The notes: generated from the letters alone by a model not told the origin. Counted from the first letter of the stretch, positions 23,826-50,854 are shown. The stretch: DNA of 64,000 bases from an uncultured archaeon (GCA_964372485.1 CAYJQI010000001.1:523714-587713), one strand, 5' to 3'. A program made the numbers and translations.

Positions 23826-24078
23826 GGCGTGCTGCCCATAGTCCCTCTTTTGTTTTGGTAGCATTTATCTAAGCCCTTACGGTTGCACCCAAGGTTATAC
23901 CAGACCGTTTCATTCCATTACCAGCACTTCACTTGAGCTCATCATACTGCTGTCATGGATCCGTTTCTGATTCTGGTTCTGACTTCTCAGCCAGCTGCTT
24001 TCACAGCACCTTAACGGGTGGAGAGAACTTCCTCATTCACACTTTGACATGTGAACGAAGCTACCTGTTCAGCTCGCC
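23826..24078 (-). ncRNA. rnpB: RNase P RNA (compact, about 250 nt)
   Basis: GC-enriched non-coding block. On the minus strand: P1 GGCGAGCUG/CAGCACGCC, P2 GGUAGC/GCUACC, P3 hairpin UUCACA...UGUGAA. CR-I-like GAGGAAGUUCUCU pairs with CR-V-like ACAAAAGAGGGACUAU to form P4. AGAUAAAUG resembles the bacterial AGAUGAAUG. TTTAAATA box at 24111-24118 upstream. Confidence 0.75.
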
Positions 24079-25330: not shown

Positions 25331-25549
25331 TCACAAATATCTCAAAAATTCATCACGATTTATTTTGGCATCTTTTAATATTGCATTTAAGGTTCCTTTG
25401 TCCAATTCATCGTGAAGTGGAATTGTAATAAACGATGTATCATTGGTAAGAGTTACATGACTTCCTTTTTGTCTCAATACTCTGAAATTAAAATTTTTAG
25501 TCAAGATTTTTATAAGATCATATCCTGAAACTACAGGAAGTTTGGCCAT
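25331..25549 (-). CDS. hicA: HicA-family toxin (YcfA-like mRNA interferase)
   Basis: 72 aa: VSGYDLIKILTKNFNFRVLRQKGSHVTL...IPLHDELDKGTLNAILKDAKI matches the HicA consensus. Confidence 0.8.
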   Translation of the reverse strand: MAKLPVVSGYDLIKILTKNFNFRVLRQKGSHVTLTNDTSFITIPLHDELDKGTLNAILKDAKINRDEFLRYL

Positions 25550-25554
25550 TCATC

Positions 25555-25767
25555 TCATCTTTTTGTGGGAACAATGTGACCTTTTTCCACATTCACTCTG
25601 CCATATTTCAGCATGTAATCCACCATAGATTCTAAGTGAACTTCTATAGCTTCACGTAAATTCTTTTTAGCCTCTAATAATGTTTTGCCTTGTGTAGTTA
25701 CACCTAACTCAGGAACTCTAGCAATATAATGTTTCTCACCTTTCCAAATCTTTATTGAAAGTTTCAT
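25555..25767 (-). CDS. hicB: HicB-family antitoxin (UPF0150)
   Basis: 70 aa: YIARVPELGVTTQGKTLLEAKKNLREAIEVHLE is the HicB N-domain consensus. It lies 5 nt upstream of hicA. Confidence 0.8.
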   Translation of the reverse strand: MKLSIKIWKGEKHYIARVPELGVTTQGKTLLEAKKNLREAIEVHLESMVDYMLKYGRVNVEKGHIVPTKR

Positions 25768-27510: not shown

Positions 27511-28239
27511 ATGATGGAAATATCAGAAATGCAAACCAGTTTAGAATCAATCGGTTTATCTGCAAATGAGGCAGCCATTTACTTGGCTCTGGCAAAACAA
27601 GGTTCGAGTAAAGCCGGAAAAATAAGTAAATTTACTCAACTCAATCGAACAACTGTTTATGATGTTCTCAAATCTCTACTAGATAAAGGATTTGTAAGCT
27701 ATATTGTAAAAGGCAAAGTAAAATATTTTGAGGCTGTTAACCCCAAACAGTTTAAGGAACTCCTTAATCAAATGCACGATGAGATAAATAAGATACTTCC
27801 TTCACTTGTAAAGATTTACAAAGAACCTGAAACAAAACATAACGTGACCTTATATTCTGGTGTTAGAGGAATACGATCAATTTTTGAAAATATACTTAGA
27901 GAAGCTAAAATTAATTACGTCCTAGATTCAGAAGGTCAGTTCGAAAATAAAATGCCATATTATGCGCAATATTTTATTAAAGGATTGGAAAAGAAAAAGG
28001 TCCAGATAAAACACATCGTACGAGAAGGGAGAAAAATAACACCATCTAAAACAACTGAGGTCAGATATATTAAAAAAGAAATTGCATCAGAAGCCACGTA
28101 CAATATATACAATGATAAAATTGCTATTTTAATTTGGTCTGATCCACCAGAAGGTATTCTAATTCAAAATAAAGATGCTGCCAATTCTTTAAAAGAATAC
28201 TTTGAAATATTGTGGAGTATTGCGAAGGTCAAGGTGTAG
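27511..28239 (+). CDS. TrmB-family transcriptional regulator
   Basis: 242 aa. The N-terminal winged HTH LGLSANEAAIYLALAKQGSSKAGKISKFTQLNRTTVYDVLKSLLDKGFVSYI is typical of TrmB. Confidence 0.8.
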   Translation: MMEISEMQTSLESIGLSANEAAIYLALAKQGSSKAGKISKFTQLNRTTVYDVLKSLLDKGFVSYIVKGKVKYFEAVNPKQFKELLNQMHDEINKILPSLVKIYKEPETKHNVTLYSGVRGIRSIFENILREAKINYVLDSEGQFENKMPYYAQYFIKGLEKKKVQIKHIVREGRKITPSKTTEVRYIKKEIASEATYNIYNDKIAILIWSDPPEGILIQNKDAANSLKEYFEILWSIAKVKV

Positions 28240-28273
28240 AAAGAATAAGTATTTTAAATAGATTTAATATTAC

Positions 28274-30490
28274 ATGCTACTAAAAGAACATCCTAACCTA
28301 GCTTTCATAGCCCCGGTAGCTAAAGATATAATACAGGATGCATGTACGCTAGGAGGATGCGGATTAATTCAAGCAGCTACTTTTGAAGCATTATGTAATA
28401 CATACGGACAACCTAAAAAAGCTTATCTCGTAACTTCTTTGGGATCAGATGCTAGACAAACTTCTGTAACTTACCAGGGAACTCGTATAACAGACATATC
28501 AGCATTATTAGAGTCGTTTAGACACATACGACCAATCATTCACTATTCTCCAGAAGAAACAACATCTTTTAGAGTTAAGAAAACGAGGGGTGAGATGGAA
28601 TATGAACCTGTTGGTAGATCTATACATGATTTAGAAAATCCTGCTAATGTAGATTCACTCCTTAAACGATTATACAGTGAAGGATTTCCAGGAATAATAA
28701 TTATTTCAGGCATTCCACCCAGAGCTGCTGATTTATTTATTGAGAAGGTTCAGAATTTTCGAGATCCTCCTCCCTATATTATGATTGACCCTGGTAAAAA
28801 TACAATTAGAGAATTTCGACAACAAAAAGGTCCTGACCTTTATCCAAATCTTTGGAAAGTAGATTTAGTAAGAGTCAATGATGATGAAAAGAGACTTTTA
28901 TTCAATAACTATGGAGAACCAGAAGAGTGGATGAATCAGTATCGCGTTAACACAGTAGTTGCAACACGAAGAGACGGTGTTTCTATTTTTAACAGGGAAC
29001 GTTCCATTTCAAATAAAGGATTAACTGAGATATTTAGAGAAATTATTCGTAATAATCAACATCCGGTAAGAGAAGATACTCTCGGAGTGGGAGATGTTTT
29101 AATGGGAGCTGTGGGTTGGCGATGCAGTTCCGAAACAGATATAAAATTTCCGATTATTCGTGATGCTTTTAAAAAAGGTGTAGCTGTTGCTCATAACTTT
29201 ATGACACAAAAAGATGGTAGACGAGGATTCACATCTTTTACTCCCAATCTAAATGAGATTGAAGAATCTCCCATTACTGTTAAACGTATATCAATTGAAC
29301 CAGGTTTATTATCTTCTGATATGCGACTATCACACTGGGGATCTAGAGAATTAACTAGACTTTATAGCATTCGTCAATGGAGTCCGCCCCATACTATTTT
29401 TAGAGCGATCAACGGAGCAAATGTAGATTATACGAGGGGGCATCATACTTTAGATGCAATAGAATTATTTTTCCCTACTTATAAGAAAACCCCAACAACG
29501 GAAATGCAATATGTAGTAATGGGTATACTTATTCACGATGCGCCGACCTCAGGTGGTAACCCACATGCAGATATTGATATCGATCCAAGAGAAATTCTTC
29601 GTGATAAAACATTAGGACAAGGGGAATTTGTAAATTCTGGAATACCAGAATATCTCAAGCATCATGGTCTTTCACCGACGGAAATGGTTACTCATATGGA
29701 AGATAATACCTATATCGCCAAAATCATTCAGGCATTTGAAAATCTAAGTCATATACTTGCAGATTCACTAAAACCACTTTCGAAAGAAGATATATTAAAA
29801 TTGGCTGAAAGTATCCGATTAAATAAAGATGGTAGCATTTCTATCCCTTACAACGTGAGATTGGGTGGAGAAAATGCATACAAATATTTGGAACGAAATA
29901 GTCAAAATGTTTTAAATGCATATCATGAACAAAATTGGAAAGCAGTTTTCTATCGAAGTATTCTTATGCAATTGCAAGAAAGAACACTGAGAGAACAAAA
30001 TATTCCGCGAGCATATCTTTACCAAATTGGTAATCTTGAATATGTAGCTATGTTATCAAGGGGTGATTTATCTCGTGTTGAAAGAGATGCATTGTGGGTA
30101 TTTGAAAATGGTGCATTACCATCCGATGAATCACAATTACCAGATCTTGTATTTTATGACATACATCGTATAGATTCTGAAATTGACGAACCTAGTGAAG
30201 CGTATATAAGATTTAAAGAAGGAACAGATACCTTTTTCAAAAATCCTCGTGCTAAAATGCCAGAAGAAGATATTGAATTAGTTCCTGTTCCCCTTCGTCT
30301 TAAAGGAGAAAATATACGAGTAGGGAAAAAAGTATTCAATCCTGTTGAAGAATTATCGTTAGGTATTTGTATTAAACAGGGAAGTAAATTAACAAGAGAT
30401 GAAGCCCTCACAATATTATCGCGTGACATTCATTTTGGACCTCACCTTGAATTAATTGAGAAAAGAAAACGCGACGGTTCAAATATTTAA
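28274..30490 (+). CDS. Fusion protein: PfkB/ribokinase-like kinase domain + HD phosphohydrolase domain (dGTPase/SAMHD1-like motif) + ~280-aa unknown C-terminal region
   Basis: 738 aa. PfkB-like motifs are GGCGLIQAA near the N-terminus and DTLGVGDVLMGAVG (nt ~29075-29116). HD pattern is RGHHTLDAIE (29441-) plus GILIHDAPTSGGNPHAD (29534-). Confidence 0.6.
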   Translation: MLLKEHPNLAFIAPVAKDIIQDACTLGGCGLIQAATFEALCNTYGQPKKAYLVTSLGSDARQTSVTYQGTRITDISALLESFRHIRPIIHYSPEETTSFRVKKTRGEMEYEPVGRSIHDLENPANVDSLLKRLYSEGFPGIIIISGIPPRAADLFIEKVQNFRDPPPYIMIDPGKNTIREFRQQKGPDLYPNLWKVDLVRVNDDEKRLLFNNYGEPEEWMNQYRVNTVVATRRDGVSIFNRERSISNKGLTEIFREIIRNNQHPVREDTLGVGDVLMGAVGWRCSSETDIKFPIIRDAFKKGVAVAHNFMTQKDGRRGFTSFTPNLNEIEESPITVKRISIEPGLLSSDMRLSHWGSRELTRLYSIRQWSPPHTIFRAINGANVDYTRGHHTLDAIELFFPTYKKTPTTEMQYVVMGILIHDAPTSGGNPHADIDIDPREILRDKTLGQGEFVNSGIPEYLKHHGLSPTEMVTHMEDNTYIAKIIQAFENLSHILADSLKPLSKEDILKLAESIRLNKDGSISIPYNVRLGGENAYKYLERNSQNVLNAYHEQNWKAVFYRSILMQLQERTLREQNIPRAYLYQIGNLEYVAMLSRGDLSRVERDALWVFENGALPSDESQLPDLVFYDIHRIDSEIDEPSEAYIRFKEGTDTFFKNPRAKMPEEDIELVPVPLRLKGENIRVGKKVFNPVEELSLGICIKQGSKLTRDEALTILSRDIHFGPHLELIEKRKRDGSNI

Positions 30491-30522
30491 ATTCATCTCC
30501 ACAAATAATAGAATAGATTATC

Positions 30523-30861
30523 ATGCCAGTTACCGTTAAAGATGTTTCTGAAATGTTTGCCAAAGATGTTTTCACTAACAAAGGTTTCTATTGTGGCAAG
30601 ATAAGCGATATGGAATTTGATTTGTCAAGATACAAGGTCAAGTCAATTGTTGTTGAGGCTGCAAGAGGTTCATTATTGGGAAAGATTGTTGCAGGAAAGA
30701 AAGGAGTTGTAGTTCCTTATAACATGGTTCAATCAGTTGGTGATGTTGTAATAATCAAACACATAAGCGAATCAGCATTGCCTGACATGGATATTCCTGA
30801 GGAGCCAGCAATGGAACCAGAAATGCCAGCTGCATCACCTAGATTCTCAAGAATGCGCTAA
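30523..30861 (+). CDS. PRC-barrel domain protein
   Basis: 112 aa: VFTNKGFYCGKISDMEFDLSRYKVKSIVVE ... VVPYNMVQSVGDVVIIK is the archaeal PRC-barrel pattern. Acidic/Pro-rich tail. Confidence 0.7.
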   Translation: MPVTVKDVSEMFAKDVFTNKGFYCGKISDMEFDLSRYKVKSIVVEAARGSLLGKIVAGKKGVVVPYNMVQSVGDVVIIKHISESALPDMDIPEEPAMEPEMPAASPRFSRMR

Positions 30862-31644
30862 AACATTAGATTCTCTTACTGTTCTTTTGTAGAAACTATC
30901 ATCATAAGGTCTATCGCTTAAAGAAGCTGCTCTTTTCATAAGTTCATGTCCTAAGGTTGTTGCATTATGTTCTCGAGAATCAATTGCATCACCAAAACTC
31001 ACCACCATCAATCTACATACTTCAGGTATGGTGTAACCTTTTAAATAACCTACTTCTCCATCATTACATCCTATCCAGTTTGGTAAGCAGTTTATTTTTA
31101 TCCCAACTGGTTGACATCTAACACCTTCCCCACTCCATTTTTCATATTCTTTTGCATAAGTGAAGATTGATTCATCCCATTTGGTTACAGGTATTTCACT
31201 AGGTTTTATTATTCCTCCTTTCGCTTTCGTCCATATTTTTCTAGGCATATCCCCTTCTGGAAAATTCAAAGCAATTAAATTTCGATACCATGTTTCAAAT
31301 AATCTATCACGAAAATACGATGAGTTAAAATCTTCACCAAAAATAGAGGCCACTATATGTGTAAATTCTTTTCCTCCTCTCATGTGGCGTGAAGGAGTGT
31401 ATACAGATACAAGTCTTGTAGAAGATTTCTCTCTAACAGCTAGACCAACTGCAATAGGATCTGTGGCCCAAATATGTGCACCGACCATAATACCTGGTCC
31501 ATTTTGTAATGGAGTTCCATTAACTTGCAGCTGATATCCATAGTCATTGCTAAACACAGAACCAACGAACGGTATTAATGCTCTATAGGTTAATGGTCGA
31601 TGATCTACCAATCTTCGTAACAAATAATTCATTCTAGAATACAT
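30847..31644 (-). CDS. PlsC/LPLAT-like acyltransferase candidate
   Basis: H-x4-D (GAHIWATDP) and FPEG (LNFPEGDMPRK) lie 71 residues apart, the spacing of acyltransferase motifs I and III. The start at Met 31644 lies 2 nt after the upstream stop; the track start 31680 would overlap. Confidence 0.45.
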   Translation of the reverse strand: MYSRMNYLLRRLVDHRPLTYRALIPFVGSVFSNDYGYQLQVNGTPLQNGPGIMVGAHIWATDPIAVGLAVREKSSTRLVSVYTPSRHMRGGKEFTHIVASIFGEDFNSSYFRDRLFETWYRNLIALNFPEGDMPRKIWTKAKGGIIKPSEIPVTKWDESIFTYAKEYEKWSGEGVRCQPVGIKINCLPNWIGCNDGEVGYLKGYTIPEVCRLMVVSFGDAIDSREHNATTLGHELMKRAASLSDRPYDDSFYKRTVRESNVLAHS

Positions 31645-31646
31645 TG

Positions 31647-32813
31647 TCACTGGTTTCTGGACTTTAAAGTTTCTTCGCATGTTGTCTCAAACTCTTCTTC
31701 TGGAATCTTTCGACATTTATCTATTAATTCCTGTTCGTTACGCGACCAAACACTTACCTGAAAAGCCATTTCTTTGTAACAAATCTCCTTGTCTTGCACA
31801 TCTACTATGGAACAGAATTCTATCACCATTGATTCATTTCCACCATATCTTCCACTCAATCCACTAACAACACCCTGCACACAGCGTTTTCTCATTTCCA
31901 ATTCCTCGATCAAATAACAATCCTCCTTCATTACTGTAAAGTTTTGTGTATATCCAACCTGGTTCGATCCTACGATCATAAAGCAGCCATTACGATATAA
32001 CTCGGGTACTTGGTTGCACAAGTCTATTGTTTTCTCCCAGTCATAGCGCGTGATGATTGAGAAATATGAACTCTGGTAGGTGTAGCATAACTTCAGATAT
32101 CTCTCTTCAAGAATGTTACATGGATACATTGGATCGTCTGGATTTACAAACTTTCCTGGATGGTCTCTGCTTGTGGAACTGGAGGAACTTTCCATGAAAA
32201 CACCACTGTAACATCCTTCCCTATCTTTAATCGAGTTTAATCCATCGCAAAGTTTCAAAGAGTATGGCAAATCCCCATTGGTTATGAACATCATCGCATG
32301 CCCGATTCCATGAACACATTCATCATAAATTCTTTGATAGGAATGTTCCTGTGGAGTTTCGCAAACATCTCTAACTTCATTTAATATAACTGAATCATCT
32401 GAGTACAGCGGTATACCTTTCTTCATGAAATGGCTTTCAAGAGCACCATGATAACATCCTCCATGACATGCTTCGGTGCATTCGGCATACACATCCGGAA
32501 TATTTCCAACTTTTTCATATTCATTCCTGCTAAGATAATGTGTGACTTCATGGCAATGTGAAAAGATTTCTGTCAACTTCTCGTTCTTTTGGAATGTATC
32601 CAGTATTTCTCTTAATGAAAATCGTGCTGTGAAATCATCCGAGATTTTGCTGTAACAAGACGAGCTGTAATTTTGATTGTAGGTGCAGTCTGCCATTTTT
32701 GATAGGATGTAACTCTCGGCATTAACATCTTCTCTTTCTGGTAATATGAATACAAGTGCTACCAATCCGATCAGAATAAGTAAAATTTTGTAATTGCCGA
32801 CAGAATTTTTCAT
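31647..32813 (-). CDS. Secreted Cys/His-rich protein, single-module paralogue of 13137-15554
   Basis: From internal Met MKNSVGNYKILLILIGLVALVFIL (signal/anchor). Motifs: HEVTH (32538-32552), CHGGCYHGALE, CVHGIGHAMMF, GCYSGVFMES, LCNQVPELYRNGC. Confidence 0.7.
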   Translation of the reverse strand: MKNSVGNYKILLILIGLVALVFILPEREDVNAESYILSKMADCTYNQNYSSSCYSKISDDFTARFSLREILDTFQKNEKLTEIFSHCHEVTHYLSRNEYEKVGNIPDVYAECTEACHGGCYHGALESHFMKKGIPLYSDDSVILNEVRDVCETPQEHSYQRIYDECVHGIGHAMMFITNGDLPYSLKLCDGLNSIKDREGCYSGVFMESSSSSTSRDHPGKFVNPDDPMYPCNILEERYLKLCYTYQSSYFSIITRYDWEKTIDLCNQVPELYRNGCFMIVGSNQVGYTQNFTVMKEDCYLIEELEMRKRCVQGVVSGLSGRYGGNESMVIEFCSIVDVQDKEICYKEMAFQVSVWSRNEQELIDKCRKIPEEEFETTCEETLKSRNQ

Positions 32814-33047
32814 AAATATTATTATTAATCGTAAGTTTATTGTTGATACACAGAAAACCGTAGGTAAGAATAAGAAAAAATCCAAAAATTTTGGAAAAAA
32901 TAAAAAGAAGTTAGCCTTCATCGAATGAATCCAGCTCTTCTACTTCCACTTCTTCAAGTGGATCCCATATGTCTTCGTCCATTTTGTTTTTCGCCTCTTT
33001 TAATTTTTAAGTGAGTAAGGAAGGGTGGAAAAAAATTCCCTTCAAAT

Positions 33048-34199
33048 TCACCTAATTACGTCAATGCCTAATGTCTGGCTGATTTCTCTAACTACTGGTG
33101 CTTCTCTGCTTACTGGCCCTAGTATGTATGGTGAACGTACGCCTGTTATGATGGCTATTACCTGAACTTTTCCTTCGAATTCTGGCAATACTCTAGCTCC
33201 CCAGAAGACTTGTGCTTGTGGGTCTAGGTGTTCTGATACAGTTTCACCTATCATGTTTACTTCGTCCAATCTTAGGTCTGGACCGCCTGTAATGTGTACT
33301 AATGCTCCTGATGCTCCTGTGTAATCCACTTCTAACAATGGATTCATCAAAGCTTTTGTGATTGCGTCTTCAGCTCTGTTGCTTGAATTGCTTTCACCTA
33401 CTCCTATTGCTGCAACACCTCCTGAGTGCATGCATGATTTAACGTCAGCGTAATCTAGATTGACTAGACTTGGAAGTGTTATCGTTTCTGTAATTCCTTT
33501 TACCATGCTTGCTATCAACTCGTCTGCAACTGCAAACGCTTGTTGAATTGACATGTTTCCTGCGAATTTGAGTAATTTGTCATTTTCTATCACAATTGCT
33601 GTGTCGCACACCTGTCTTAGAGATGCCAATGCTTCCTCGGCTTTACCGATTCTTGCACCTTCTAGCTTGAAAGGCATTGTAACTACGGCAATTACGATTG
33701 CTCCCATTGATTTAGCAATTTCACAAGCTACTGGTACTGATCCGGATCCTGTTCCTTTTCCTAGACCTGCAACTGCAAATACTAGGTCAGATCCTTCTAA
33801 TACTTCTTTGACTTCGTTTCTTGATTCTTCTGTAGCTTTCTTACCAACTTCTGGAATTCCTCCAGCTCCTAATCCTTTAGTCAATTCTCTTCCTATGAGA
33901 ATTTTCTTATCAGCTTTTCCTACTGCCAAGTGTTTGGCATCTGTATTTATTGAAATAGTTTGTGCACCTTCGACTCCCATTTCTGTTAGTCGAGTTACTG
34001 CATTTTGTCCTGCTCCTCCGCAACCAATAACGGTTACCTTGGCTTTCTTTACAGAGAAACCGAATTCTTGTTCGGCTAATTTGTAATAGTCAACATTGCT
34101 GAATGTCGCACCAGATGATGACTCTAATCTGAATCTGTGCTGCAAGGATTCGCCCTCAGCGCCAGATTTTCCCATCGCATTTTTAACAATCGATTCCAT
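33048..34199 (-). CDS. ftsZ: Cell division GTPase FtsZ (variant tubulin signature GKGTGSG)
   Basis: VTVIGCGGAGQNAV, GLGKGTGSGSVPV (33738-33767) and a typical FtsZ C-domain. The start is taken at MESIV, preceded by ATAGGAGGAC; the track TTG start is 8 codons upstream. Confidence 0.9.
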   Translation of the reverse strand: MESIVKNAMGKSGAEGESLQHRFRLESSSGATFSNVDYYKLAEQEFGFSVKKAKVTVIGCGGAGQNAVTRLTEMGVEGAQTISINTDAKHLAVGKADKKILIGRELTKGLGAGGIPEVGKKATEESRNEVKEVLEGSDLVFAVAGLGKGTGSGSVPVACEIAKSMGAIVIAVVTMPFKLEGARIGKAEEALASLRQVCDTAIVIENDKLLKFAGNMSIQQAFAVADELIASMVKGITETITLPSLVNLDYADVKSCMHSGGVAAIGVGESNSSNRAEDAITKALMNPLLEVDYTGASGALVHITGGPDLRLDEVNMIGETVSEHLDPQAQVFWGARVLPEFEGKVQVIAIITGVRSPYILGPVSREAPVVREISQTLGIDVIR

Positions 34200-34498
34200 T
34201 TTTTGTCCTCCTATCTTTTGCAAAATATATTTTGCTTCATCGAAAATCCTTTTTTAAAGGATATCCAATTTACTTTTACCAAAACGAGATTTAGATTATA
34301 ACTTGTGACCAAACAAGATACACGAAAGTTACTTTACCAGAGTAACTTTACGAACCAAACGAGTTATAAGTGTAAAAATTTATTTCATTCCTACTTTTAA
34401 ATACTTTGACAAAATTTATTATATATATTCTACTATACATTACACGAAAAATAAAATTGTGTTTTCATTTTTTTGAATGCACAACAGGTTGTACCAAA

Positions 34499-50757: not shown

Positions 50758-50854
50758 GCCCCAGCAATGCCCCGGTAATTCATCGGGAAAGCTCAGTAGG
50801 TAGAGCGGCACGCTGTTAACGTGATGGTCGAGAGTTCGAGTCTCTCCTGGGGCG
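50758..50854 (+). tRNA. tRNA-Asn (anticodon GUU) with a non-canonical intron between acceptor stem and D-arm; mature 5' end probably at 50769
   Basis: D-arm GCUC AGUAGGUA GAGC, anticodon loop CUGUUAA, T-arm GAGAG UUCGAGU CUCUC, 3' acceptor CUGGGGC plus G73. Both GCCCCAG (50758-64) and GCCCCGG (50769-75) can form the 5' acceptor strand. Confidence 0.8.
50777..50789 (+). other. Predicted 13-nt tRNA intron at position 8/9 (bulge-helix-bulge-like)
   Basis: Helix CCCG (50771-74) / CGGG (50784-87) is flanked by 3-nt bulges GUA (50775-77) and AAA (50788-90). Cutting after the second bulge nucleotide gives GCCCCGG-U-A-GCUC, i.e. U8-A9, and a 73-nt tRNA. Confidence 0.5.

Follow-up and report, generated by a model that had tools for sequence, protein, structure and literature searches.

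A PfkB-type kinase and a SAMHD1-like HD domain joined in one archaeal gene: a candidate system for nucleotide pool control

What brings a sugar- or nucleoside-type kinase and a hydrolase-like domain of the class that acts on deoxynucleoside triphosphates (dNTPs) together in one archaeal reading frame, and what would such a protein do? The question is raised by a gene of 738 codons in a 64,000-nucleotide stretch of DNA from an uncultured archaeon (GCA_964372485.1 CAYJQI010000001.1:523714-587713), here called the window. A sequence-only reading of this DNA had described the gene as a PfkB-like kinase fused to a dGTPase/SAMHD1-like HD domain, with a separate C-terminal region of about 280 residues, and had placed it in a module with a TrmB regulator gene upstream and a PRC-barrel gene downstream. 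Our results demonstrate that the gene is a natural in-frame fusion of two units that are encoded separately elsewhere, as neighbouring genes in a small clade of DPANN-type archaea, one source of which is named Aenigmarchaeota. The parts of the open reading frame (ORF) referred to below are the following.

28274-30490, + strand: fusion gene, an ORF of 738 amino acids with a PfkB-type kinase domain, a linker and a SAMHD1-like HD phosphohydrolase domain
28274-29275, + strand: PfkB/ribokinase-like kinase domain, residues 1 to ~334
28352-28378, + strand: GG motif, with GGCGLIQAA at residues 27-35; Ile stands here for the Asn of GGCGLNQA in the homologues
28877-28888, + strand: NxxE motif N202-D-D-E205, invariant in the N-half alignment A2 and aligned to N187/E190 of the ribokinase RbsK
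29075-29095, + strand: DTLGVGD, the GxGD anion hole and catalytic Asp274, residues 268-274, aligned to DTIAAGD of RbsK and to 5ey7
29276-29344, + strand: linker and site of the in-frame fusion, residues ~335-357, where the N-half homologues end and the C-half homologues start
29345-30466, + strand: HD phosphohydrolase domain of SAMHD1/dGTPase fold, residues ~358-731, including the C-terminal region earlier taken as unknown
29435-29446, + strand: R388-G-H-H391, the Arg and the first metal-ligand His of the HD motif; H391 is invariant, and RGHHTLDAIE occupies residues 388-397
29534-29572, + strand: H421-D422-x-x-T425-x5-H431-x-D433, the HD dyad and flanking residues, all invariant in the family
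29738-29764, + strand: E489-N490-L-S-H493-I-L-A-D497, a conserved helix, invariant at its E, N, H and D, that may supply the fourth metal ligand and contacts to the sugar

A single reading frame and two separately encoded units

Taken alone, the 738-residue protein has no match in Pfam, NCBIfam or the PDB sequences, even at permissive thresholds; the PfkB model PF00294 is missed at an expect value (E) of <=1, and the protein lies below every Pfam threshold. A word-index search of 5.8 billion clusters retrieved only the protein itself, from the NCBI contig (791 kb) and from a Logan assembly, and word-index homology searches with the protein, and then with an alignment of its C-terminal half, recovered only the protein itself and one relative, P0008. 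An exhaustive phmmer search (HMMER) of 1.84 billion representatives yielded nine relatives, which split cleanly into two groups. The N-half group consists of four proteins of 377-404 amino acids matching residues ~6-330, and the C-half group of five proteins of 402-413 amino acids matching residues ~354-731, the best of them being P0002 (E 3e-69, 36% identity). No other protein covers both halves, and among ~15 billion proteins the one studied here is the sole fused copy. Scans of genome and metagenome contigs with the C-half alignment returned the known loci and no new one.

Is the fusion genuine? We judge that it is, because the window agrees letter for letter with an independent Logan assembly across 10,162 nucleotides, because only the gene's own frame runs through the junction (residues ~335-357), the other two frames carrying stop codons throughout, and because G+C content and G+C at third codon positions (GC3) are equal in both halves; the composition also fits the host genome. 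The alternative, a frameshift or misassembly artefact or a decaying pseudogene made from two genes, could draw on the fact that this is the only fused copy known and on the conserved Asn of the GG motif having become Ile. We regard it as very improbable: there is one frame of 738 codons in two identical assemblies, every other catalytic or invariant residue of both halves is kept, and in the closest relative (L002) the two genes are already adjacent and co-oriented. The frameshift-joined artefact, which the sequence-only reading had named as a way in which it could fail, is thus set aside.

New are the family and the pairing; each domain by itself falls in a known superfamily. No account of a PfkB-dNTPase pair or fusion turned up in our literature searches, and a 2026 survey of dGTPase architectures, which covers TIR, NLR, CARD, SIR2 and SAM fusions, never mentions a kinase (PMC13519002). 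With one fused copy found and no kinase in that survey, the architecture can be called undescribed, as had been supposed. The family is also very rare, with nine members among ~15 billion sequences, and starting from the fused protein it is invisible to Pfam.

Domain identities of the two halves

The N-terminal half is 39% identical to the stand-alone gene of L002 and 28-30% identical to P0005/P0007. Among the stand-alone homologues, P0010 scores 37.4 bits and P0007 28.9 bits against PF00294, both above its gathering cut-off of 25.8 bits, and the profile of the six-member alignment A2 matches PDB sequences, with the fructokinase 5ey7 as the best (E 1.4e-5), followed by several ribokinases. An hhalign comparison with E. 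coli RbsK, whose reference sequence was confirmed to be identical to 1gqt/1rkd, gave a probability of 77.6% and E 1.9e-5. The N-terminal half is accordingly a divergent PfkB member by transitive homology, since the protein alone finds no match and its homologues, the family profile and hhalign do.

All four motifs quoted in the sequence-only reading were located exactly at the residues given, including the second kinase signature DTLGVGDVLMGAVG at residues 268-281 and the HD element GILIHDAPTSGGNPHAD at residues 417-433. They are not chance patterns, because they lie on invariant or nearly invariant columns of the homologues and because those of the kinase are aligned to ribokinase catalytic motifs. 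In the kinase half, hhalign places D274 on D255, the catalytic base of RbsK, and both NxxE and the GxGD Asp are invariant across the N-half family, the rearranged P0009 excepted. The strict PROSITE PfkB patterns 1 (GG...N) and 2 (DTxGAGD) have no match in the 738-residue protein, which departs from them by Ile for Asn in GGCGLIQAA and by Val for [SAG] in DTLGVGD; its homologues carry the canonical GGCGLNQA and DTTGAGD. By motif comparison only, GGCGLIQAA would be equivalent to GGKGANQA of ribokinase, in which the Asn (N46) contacts the substrate, and the invariant Asp18 would be the counterpart of ribokinase Asp16. Both features, the GG motif of ribokinase type and Asp18, hint at a furanose or nucleoside substrate, and the kinase machinery looks intact.

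Set beside RbsK and the PfkB kinases of PF00294, the N-terminal half is alike in the NxxE and DTxGxGD motifs aligned to catalytic residues, in the GGxGxNQA-type motif and in the N-terminal Asp (D18 against D16). It differs from RbsK in an identity of only ~20%, in Cys for Lys43 and Ile for Asn46 in the fused protein, in a helical insertion of 40-60 residues borne by the homologues, and in the fusion to an HD enzyme. One homologue departs from the usual order: in P0009 (PfkB-like, L014:8001-9215) the GAGD motif (TETSGAGDTF) is shifted to the extreme C-terminus, past the helix that usually follows it. The displaced motif is present in three contigs; a rearrangement or permutation of the order would account for it, or else an assembly quirk.

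For the C-terminal half, the assignment comes from structure. AlphaFold2 run on the full 738-residue protein as a single sequence gave a predicted local distance difference test score (pLDDT) of 33 and was unusable, and the C-half family profile found nothing credible among the PDB sequences. A model of the C-half from six input sequences reached pLDDT 85.3 with a predicted template modelling score (pTM) of 0.86. Foldseek searches of the PDB with this model returned 2hek (Aquifex O67745; E 8.9e-6), Rhizophagus SAMHD1 (9mr6; E 2.5e-5, query TM-score 0.54) and human SAMHD1 (4mz7, E 4e-4, and 8qxm), each with a probability of ~1.0, and lower down the Thermus dNTPase 2dqb (probability 0.75). The alignments run over 400-480 columns, the full length of the domain, and no other fold was found at E<0.1. 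Against the viral models of BFVD, the matches were HD phosphohydrolases of giant viruses and phages, of the same class. The best match, 2HEK, is a tetrameric and biochemically uncharacterised homologue of the dNTP triphosphohydrolase EF1143 (PMC3190883).

These alignments, together with the stand-alone homologues (P0002/3/4/6/8 and those of L014/L016), which with ~405 amino acids cover residues 354-731, also settle the extent of the domain. The last ~280 residues, which the sequence-only reading had set apart as a region without recognisable motif, form the C-terminal lobe of one SAMHD1-like fold shared with the HD region. The model indicates that the C-half is one domain, a very divergent one, of the SAMHD1/EF1143/dGTPase structural class, as the HD motifs had suggested, and its family is a new lineage of that class which sequence profiles do not detect.

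Alignment A3 (eight family sequences plus the window protein) shows as invariant H391, H421-D422, T425, H431, D433, E489-N490, H493, D497 and Y550, together with an N-terminal E-x-x-R-L. The only stretch that hhalign aligned with SAMHD1, below statistical significance, puts R388/H391 on R164/H167. The other residue equivalences rest on motif spacing, because hhalign is not significant: H421-D422 would correspond to H206-D207 of SAMHD1 and H431/D433 to H215/D218, and, from spacing only, E489-N490-x-x-H493-x-x-x-D497 to D311-K312-x-x-Y315-x-x-x-D319. E489 and D497, both invariant, are the candidates for the fourth ligand. The predicted fold and metal site support membership in the structural class; triphosphohydrolase chemistry is a separate, putative step.

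Compared with SAMHD1, EF1143, 2HEK and the Thermus dNTPase, the C-half is alike in fold across ~390 residues, HD core and C-terminal lobe included (Foldseek probability 1.0, TM-scores 0.41-0.54), in an H...HD metal-ligand motif, in an H-x-D soon after HD and in an acidic helix at the expected distance; its size is near that of 2HEK (369 amino acids). It differs from the class in having no sequence similarity by hidden Markov models or hhalign, in lacking a SAM domain and in being always paired with or fused to a PfkB kinase.

Gene neighbourhoods and the NrdD-like partner

Homologues of the two halves are linked in every locus for which flanks are available. The arrangements, in the order of the genes, are as follows.

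L002 (closest relative): PfkB-like gene (39% identical to the N-half), then P0002 directly downstream
L009 (GCA_053529915.1): P0007, an 11-nucleotide gap, P0003
L003/L007 (metagenome-assembled genome, MAG, of Candidatus Aenigmarchaeota, GCA_016187385.1; 786-kb contig): PfkB-like gene, a gene for 641-660 amino acids, C-half family gene
L012: gene of the 641-660-amino-acid type, cut at the contig end, then C-half family gene; the PfkB position lies beyond the contig
L013: PfkB-like gene (cut), 641-660-amino-acid gene, C-half family gene
L014/L015: PfkB-like gene, 641-660-amino-acid gene, C-half family gene
L016: PfkB-like gene, 641-660-amino-acid gene, C-half family gene

In the five loci with a middle gene (L003, L012, L013, L014/15 and L016), overlaps of stop and start codons are frequent. 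The comparison of neighbourhoods defines the conserved unit as the PfkB-like and SAMHD1-like genes, with a third gene between them in these five. This third gene encodes a protein with a winged helix-turn-helix (wHTH) domain followed by a core like that of NrdD, the class III ribonucleotide reductase (RNR), and is found outside the window at these positions.

L003:7238-9163, L013:617-2545, L014:9215-11146, L016:1393-3375 and L012:2-1366: wHTH-NrdD-like gene

The family members have 628-660 amino acids, with a wHTH (HTH_24) and then the NrdD core (PF13597, E 1e-40 to 1e-44). The PF13597 match ends at model position 504 of 562, and the PDB alignment at residue 674 of 743 of 8p23. In alignment A5, made with full-length archaeal NrdDs, the finger-loop Cys of NrdD is replaced by Glu or Asp in this short wHTH family, which ends before the CxxC...CxxC...RITGY Zn-ribbon and glycyl-radical tail; the GN...TINLPR active-site segment is retained. 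Because it lacks both the finger-loop Cys and the Zn-ribbon/RITGY tail, the protein cannot be a glycyl-radical reductase, and it is probably a nucleotide-binding or nucleotide-sensing regulator, a dead class III RNR put to new use. It differs from class III NrdD, archaeal HTH-ATP-cone-NrdD forms included, in having the wHTH in place of the ATP-cone and in having neither the finger-loop Cys nor the glycyl-radical tail. We considered the C-half as a glycyl-radical domain supplied in trans to the truncated protein and rejected it: the Gly of its 'SLGVY' segment gives way to Ala in P0003 and to Asn in L014, and an RVxG[FWY] context is missing.

A role of the NrdD-like gene as constant companion of the pair was ruled out by more distant relatives (~30% identity; P0017, P0018 and P0020), which stand alone beside housekeeping genes in other small archaeal genomes. 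Because these stand alone and the window has no such gene (tblastn found neither a NrdD-like nor a Csm6-like gene there), it is an accessory of one clade and not an obligate partner. Literature searches gave no account of a truncated wHTH-NrdD. HTH-NrdD fusions seem to be common in archaea, and one of them, the Bathyarchaeia protein P0079 (737 amino acids; HTH_5, ATP-cone and NRDD), lacks the finger-loop Cys in alignment A5 ('SSSGTKF' at that place) and ends in 'FDRFNS' instead of RITGY; it may represent a second, independent non-catalytic NrdD lineage.

In the window and in the related loci, the surroundings are of the housekeeping type (ribosomal proteins, EF-2/EF-1a, cytidylate kinase, DHH/HD/HIT, tRNAs, RNase P, PolX and UDG). 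The host genomes are very small, and the neighbourhoods are syntenic and not defence islands. Just downstream of the three-gene operon lies a conserved cluster on the opposite strand that adds more genes of nucleotide phosphohydrolases to the neighbourhood of the pair: a DHH/DHHA1 gene (NrnA-like), a gene for a 205-amino-acid HD protein (PF01966) and a HIT gene (L013:4196-6360, L014:13363-15540 and L016:5089-6536). Ribosomal L1/L10/P-stalk genes come after it. In haloarchaea, nrnA is reported to adjoin the PRC-barrel gene cdpB1 (10.1101/2023.03.28.534520). In L009, a Csm6-like gene with a CARF-like N-terminus, Csm6 6H and Csm6 HEPN (L009:9309-10739; PF09670 E 1e-25) stands immediately downstream of the pair.

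The window itself is archaeal, with an archaeal RNase P RNA at 23827-24077 and a G+C content of ~35%. Around the fusion gene it holds the following.

27511-28239, + strand: TrmB-family wHTH regulator gene, 242 amino acids (PF01978 E 2.4e-17, 63 bits)
28240-28273, + strand: 34-nucleotide spacer with a TATA-like TTTAAATA at 28253, a mere pattern match in DNA of 65% A+T and no evidence of a promoter
30491-30522, + strand: 32-nucleotide spacer with no TATA-like box
30523-30861, + strand: PRC-barrel protein gene, 112 amino acids (PF05239 E 7e-9, 36 bits)
33048-34223, strand opposite to the trio: ftsZ, 2.2 kb away, with two ORFs of no family match between

The three co-directional ORFs, their 34- and 32-nucleotide spacers and the identities of the two flanking genes are as the sequence-only reading had them, and the profile matches listed above back the TrmB and PRC-barrel assignments. 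Its three-gene module was not supported. By tblastn, no homologue of the TrmB, PRC-barrel, FtsZ or other neighbours in the window occurs in the related loci (the flanks of L002 lie outside this coverage), and because of this absence the trio is, as far as visible, a local juxtaposition; the TrmB and PRC-barrel genes are neighbours and not conserved partners of the kinase-HD pair. The distance to ftsZ was given correctly, and the gene proved to lie on the opposite strand beyond two unknown genes.

Equivalog models match the TrmB gene with 33-55 bits against cut-offs of 500-650, over residues 1-140 only; profile scans found no match for residues 141-242 and detected no TrmB sugar-binding domain. 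A search for a TrmB operator gave only weak palindromes (71-75% complementary, in AT-rich DNA) and no Thermococcales-type TGM motif. The two ORFs between the PRC-barrel gene and ftsZ (window 30847-32921, - strand) encode 277 and 424 amino acids; the 277-amino-acid ORF overlaps the 3' end of the PRC-barrel gene convergently by 15 nucleotides, and the 424-amino-acid protein is Cys/His-rich with a hydrophobic N-terminus.

Proposed role and competing explanations

With moderate confidence, we propose that in a DPANN-type archaeon the pair forms a substrate cycle that controls the (deoxy)nucleotide pool or serves salvage. The proposal starts from the domain identities, the retained NxxE and GxGD residues of the kinase and H...HD ligands of the hydrolase, the conserved pairing of the genes and their housekeeping context. 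The fusion is strong genomic evidence that the two activities belong to one pathway, and we infer that they would share one nucleoside skeleton as their target and work in succession. A (deoxy)nucleoside triphosphate would lose its phosphates in the HD domain and become a nucleoside; this product, or a nucleoside obtained by salvage, would then be phosphorylated by the kinase at the sugar hydroxyl. Together, hydrolase and kinase could run a cycle through which the (d)NTP pool is set or rebalanced and salvage is supplied. In related genomes, the wHTH NrdD-like protein, devoid of radical machinery, would probably be the nucleotide-sensing regulator; since this partner belongs to the NrdD family (E 1e-40), all three genes would be nucleotide-related. 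In the present genome, where the NrdD-like gene is absent, the TrmB-family wHTH protein encoded upstream would perhaps supply transcriptional control.

A cycle of SAMHD1 and deoxynucleoside kinases that sets dNTP pools is established in mammals (PMC4646252). The same two opposed activities are proposed here, from dNTP to deoxynucleoside and back to a phosphorylated form; the mammalian proteins are separate and unlinked, with kinases of the dNK/TK family, whereas here one polypeptide or one operon would provide them, with a PfkB kinase.

Several observations speak against our proposal. The substrate-contacting Asn present in ribokinase and in the homologues is Ile in the 738-residue protein only. 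HD and dGTPase profiles (Pfam, including PF01966, and NCBIfam) match neither the window protein nor the five stand-alone homologues, hhalign of the C-half family against human SAMHD1 (query sequence validated beforehand) is not significant in default, greedy-local or global mode, and the Foldseek TM-scores reach no more than 0.41-0.54. The absence of significant PfkB or HD profile hits is what the sequence-only reading had said would speak against it, and the single sequence indeed has none; only transitive homology and structure overturn this. As judged from motif spacing, the invariant T425 would occupy the position of H210 of SAMHD1, and no invariant His stands between residues 433 and 489 that could answer to H233 of SAMHD1 or H129 of EF1143, whose catalytic residues are H114 and H129-E122 (PMC3190883); a reaction other than triphosphohydrolysis is therefore conceivable. 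Glu, and not Asp, may serve as the fourth metal ligand. The proposed cycle would burn ATP with no net synthesis, the TrmB neighbour would fit sugar metabolism, and the Csm6-like gene of L009 is the only defence-type neighbour among the related loci.

One alternative is a role in sugar or sugar-phosphate metabolism. The PfkB domain would then act on a free sugar (ribose, deoxyribose or fructose) or on ribose-1-phosphate, the HD domain would work as a phosphatase or phosphodiesterase and not as a triphosphohydrolase, and a TrmB-type regulator would control the pair. The TrmB gene lies directly upstream on the same strand, the best PDB matches of the kinase profile are a fructokinase and ribokinases, the catalytic His of dNTPases is not evidently kept, with Thr at the H210 position by motif inference, and a 6-phosphogluconate dehydrogenase gene is present in the window. 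We still consider this explanation unlikely, as TrmB is missing from every related locus and shows no sugar-binding domain, the conserved third partner is NrdD-like and points to nucleotides, and the entire 390-residue fold, beyond the HD core, matches dNTPases specifically. A defence role, with SAMHD1/dGTPase-like dNTP depletion against viruses and a kinase-fold domain that senses, regulates or inactivates viral nucleosides, appears less likely than nucleotide pool control or salvage, and on the whole rather doubtful. Bacterial dGTPases and SAMHD1 do restrict viruses through dNTP depletion, and fusions to sensor modules are frequent (PMC13519002; 10.1101/2021.04.26.441389). As in the bacterial anti-phage fusions with TIR, NLR, CARD or SIR2, a dGTPase-class domain is joined here to a second domain (PMC13519002), but the partner is a metabolic kinase with intact catalytic motifs, whose conservation would not be expected of a mere sensor. 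The extreme sparseness of the family, the CARF-6H-HEPN gene immediately downstream in L009 and a HicAB pair 2 kb upstream in the window would fit defence; against it stand the lack of a credible PADLOC match among 10 proteins or of any PHROGs match, the syntenic housekeeping neighbourhoods in very small genomes and a composition that fits the host genome.

Least probable of the functional alternatives, and in our view improbable, is a module of TrmB, fusion and PRC-barrel genes that couples nucleotide supply to FtsZ-based division. The trio is co-directional with short spacers, the second of which has no TATA-like box, PRC-barrel proteins act in archaeal FtsZ division (10.1101/2023.03.28.534520), and ftsZ is 2.2 kb off. 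None of the related loci, however, has TrmB, PRC-barrel or FtsZ genes nearby, ftsZ is on the opposite strand past two unrelated ORFs, and most PRC-barrel genes stand alone near diverse housekeeping genes, with one near sepF/ftsZ in one DPANN genome only (10.1101/2023.03.28.534520).

The nucleotide cycle that we prefer has a more far-reaching form, which we consider speculative and rather unlikely as a whole. Kinase, SAMHD1-like hydrolase and the wHTH pseudo-NrdD of the relatives would make up a previously unknown, self-regulating governor of the dNTP pool in ultra-small DPANN archaea, in which a dead RNR, acting as a dNTP-sensing transcription factor, controls a pair that interconverts salvaged deoxynucleosides and dNTPs, perhaps in place of a conventional RNR-centred supply, in organisms that draw their nucleosides from hosts. 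DPANN archaea have tiny genomes, mostly lack de novo nucleotide synthesis and depend on hosts, and how they acquire and balance dNTPs is poorly understood. Because the fusion points strongly to one shared pathway, the locus offers a directly testable hypothesis of a kinase/dNTPase cycle in archaea. For the SAMHD1/dGTPase class, it widens the known sequence space and adds a domain partnership outside the immune-type fusions, and the wHTH pseudo-NrdD, if confirmed, would be an enzyme scaffold recruited as a nucleotide sensor.

Some further features were seen in the window and in the related contigs. The HicAB pair of the window (25331-25767, - strand) consists of a HicA toxin (PF07927, E 1.9e-15) and a HicB/UPF0150-like antitoxin and is flanked by tRNA-Val and tRNA-Ser. 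At 50790-50846 (+ strand), an Rfam tRNA match of 43.6 bits covers model positions 9-63 only and is not called by ARAGORN; an archaeal tRNA of atypical make-up may lie here, for instance one that is split or has an intron. In the Aenigmarchaeota MAG, the elongation factor 2 gene (L003:1-2017) contains an intein that bears a LAGLIDADG endonuclease, and a free-standing LAGLIDADG ORF lies at L003:12286-13080.

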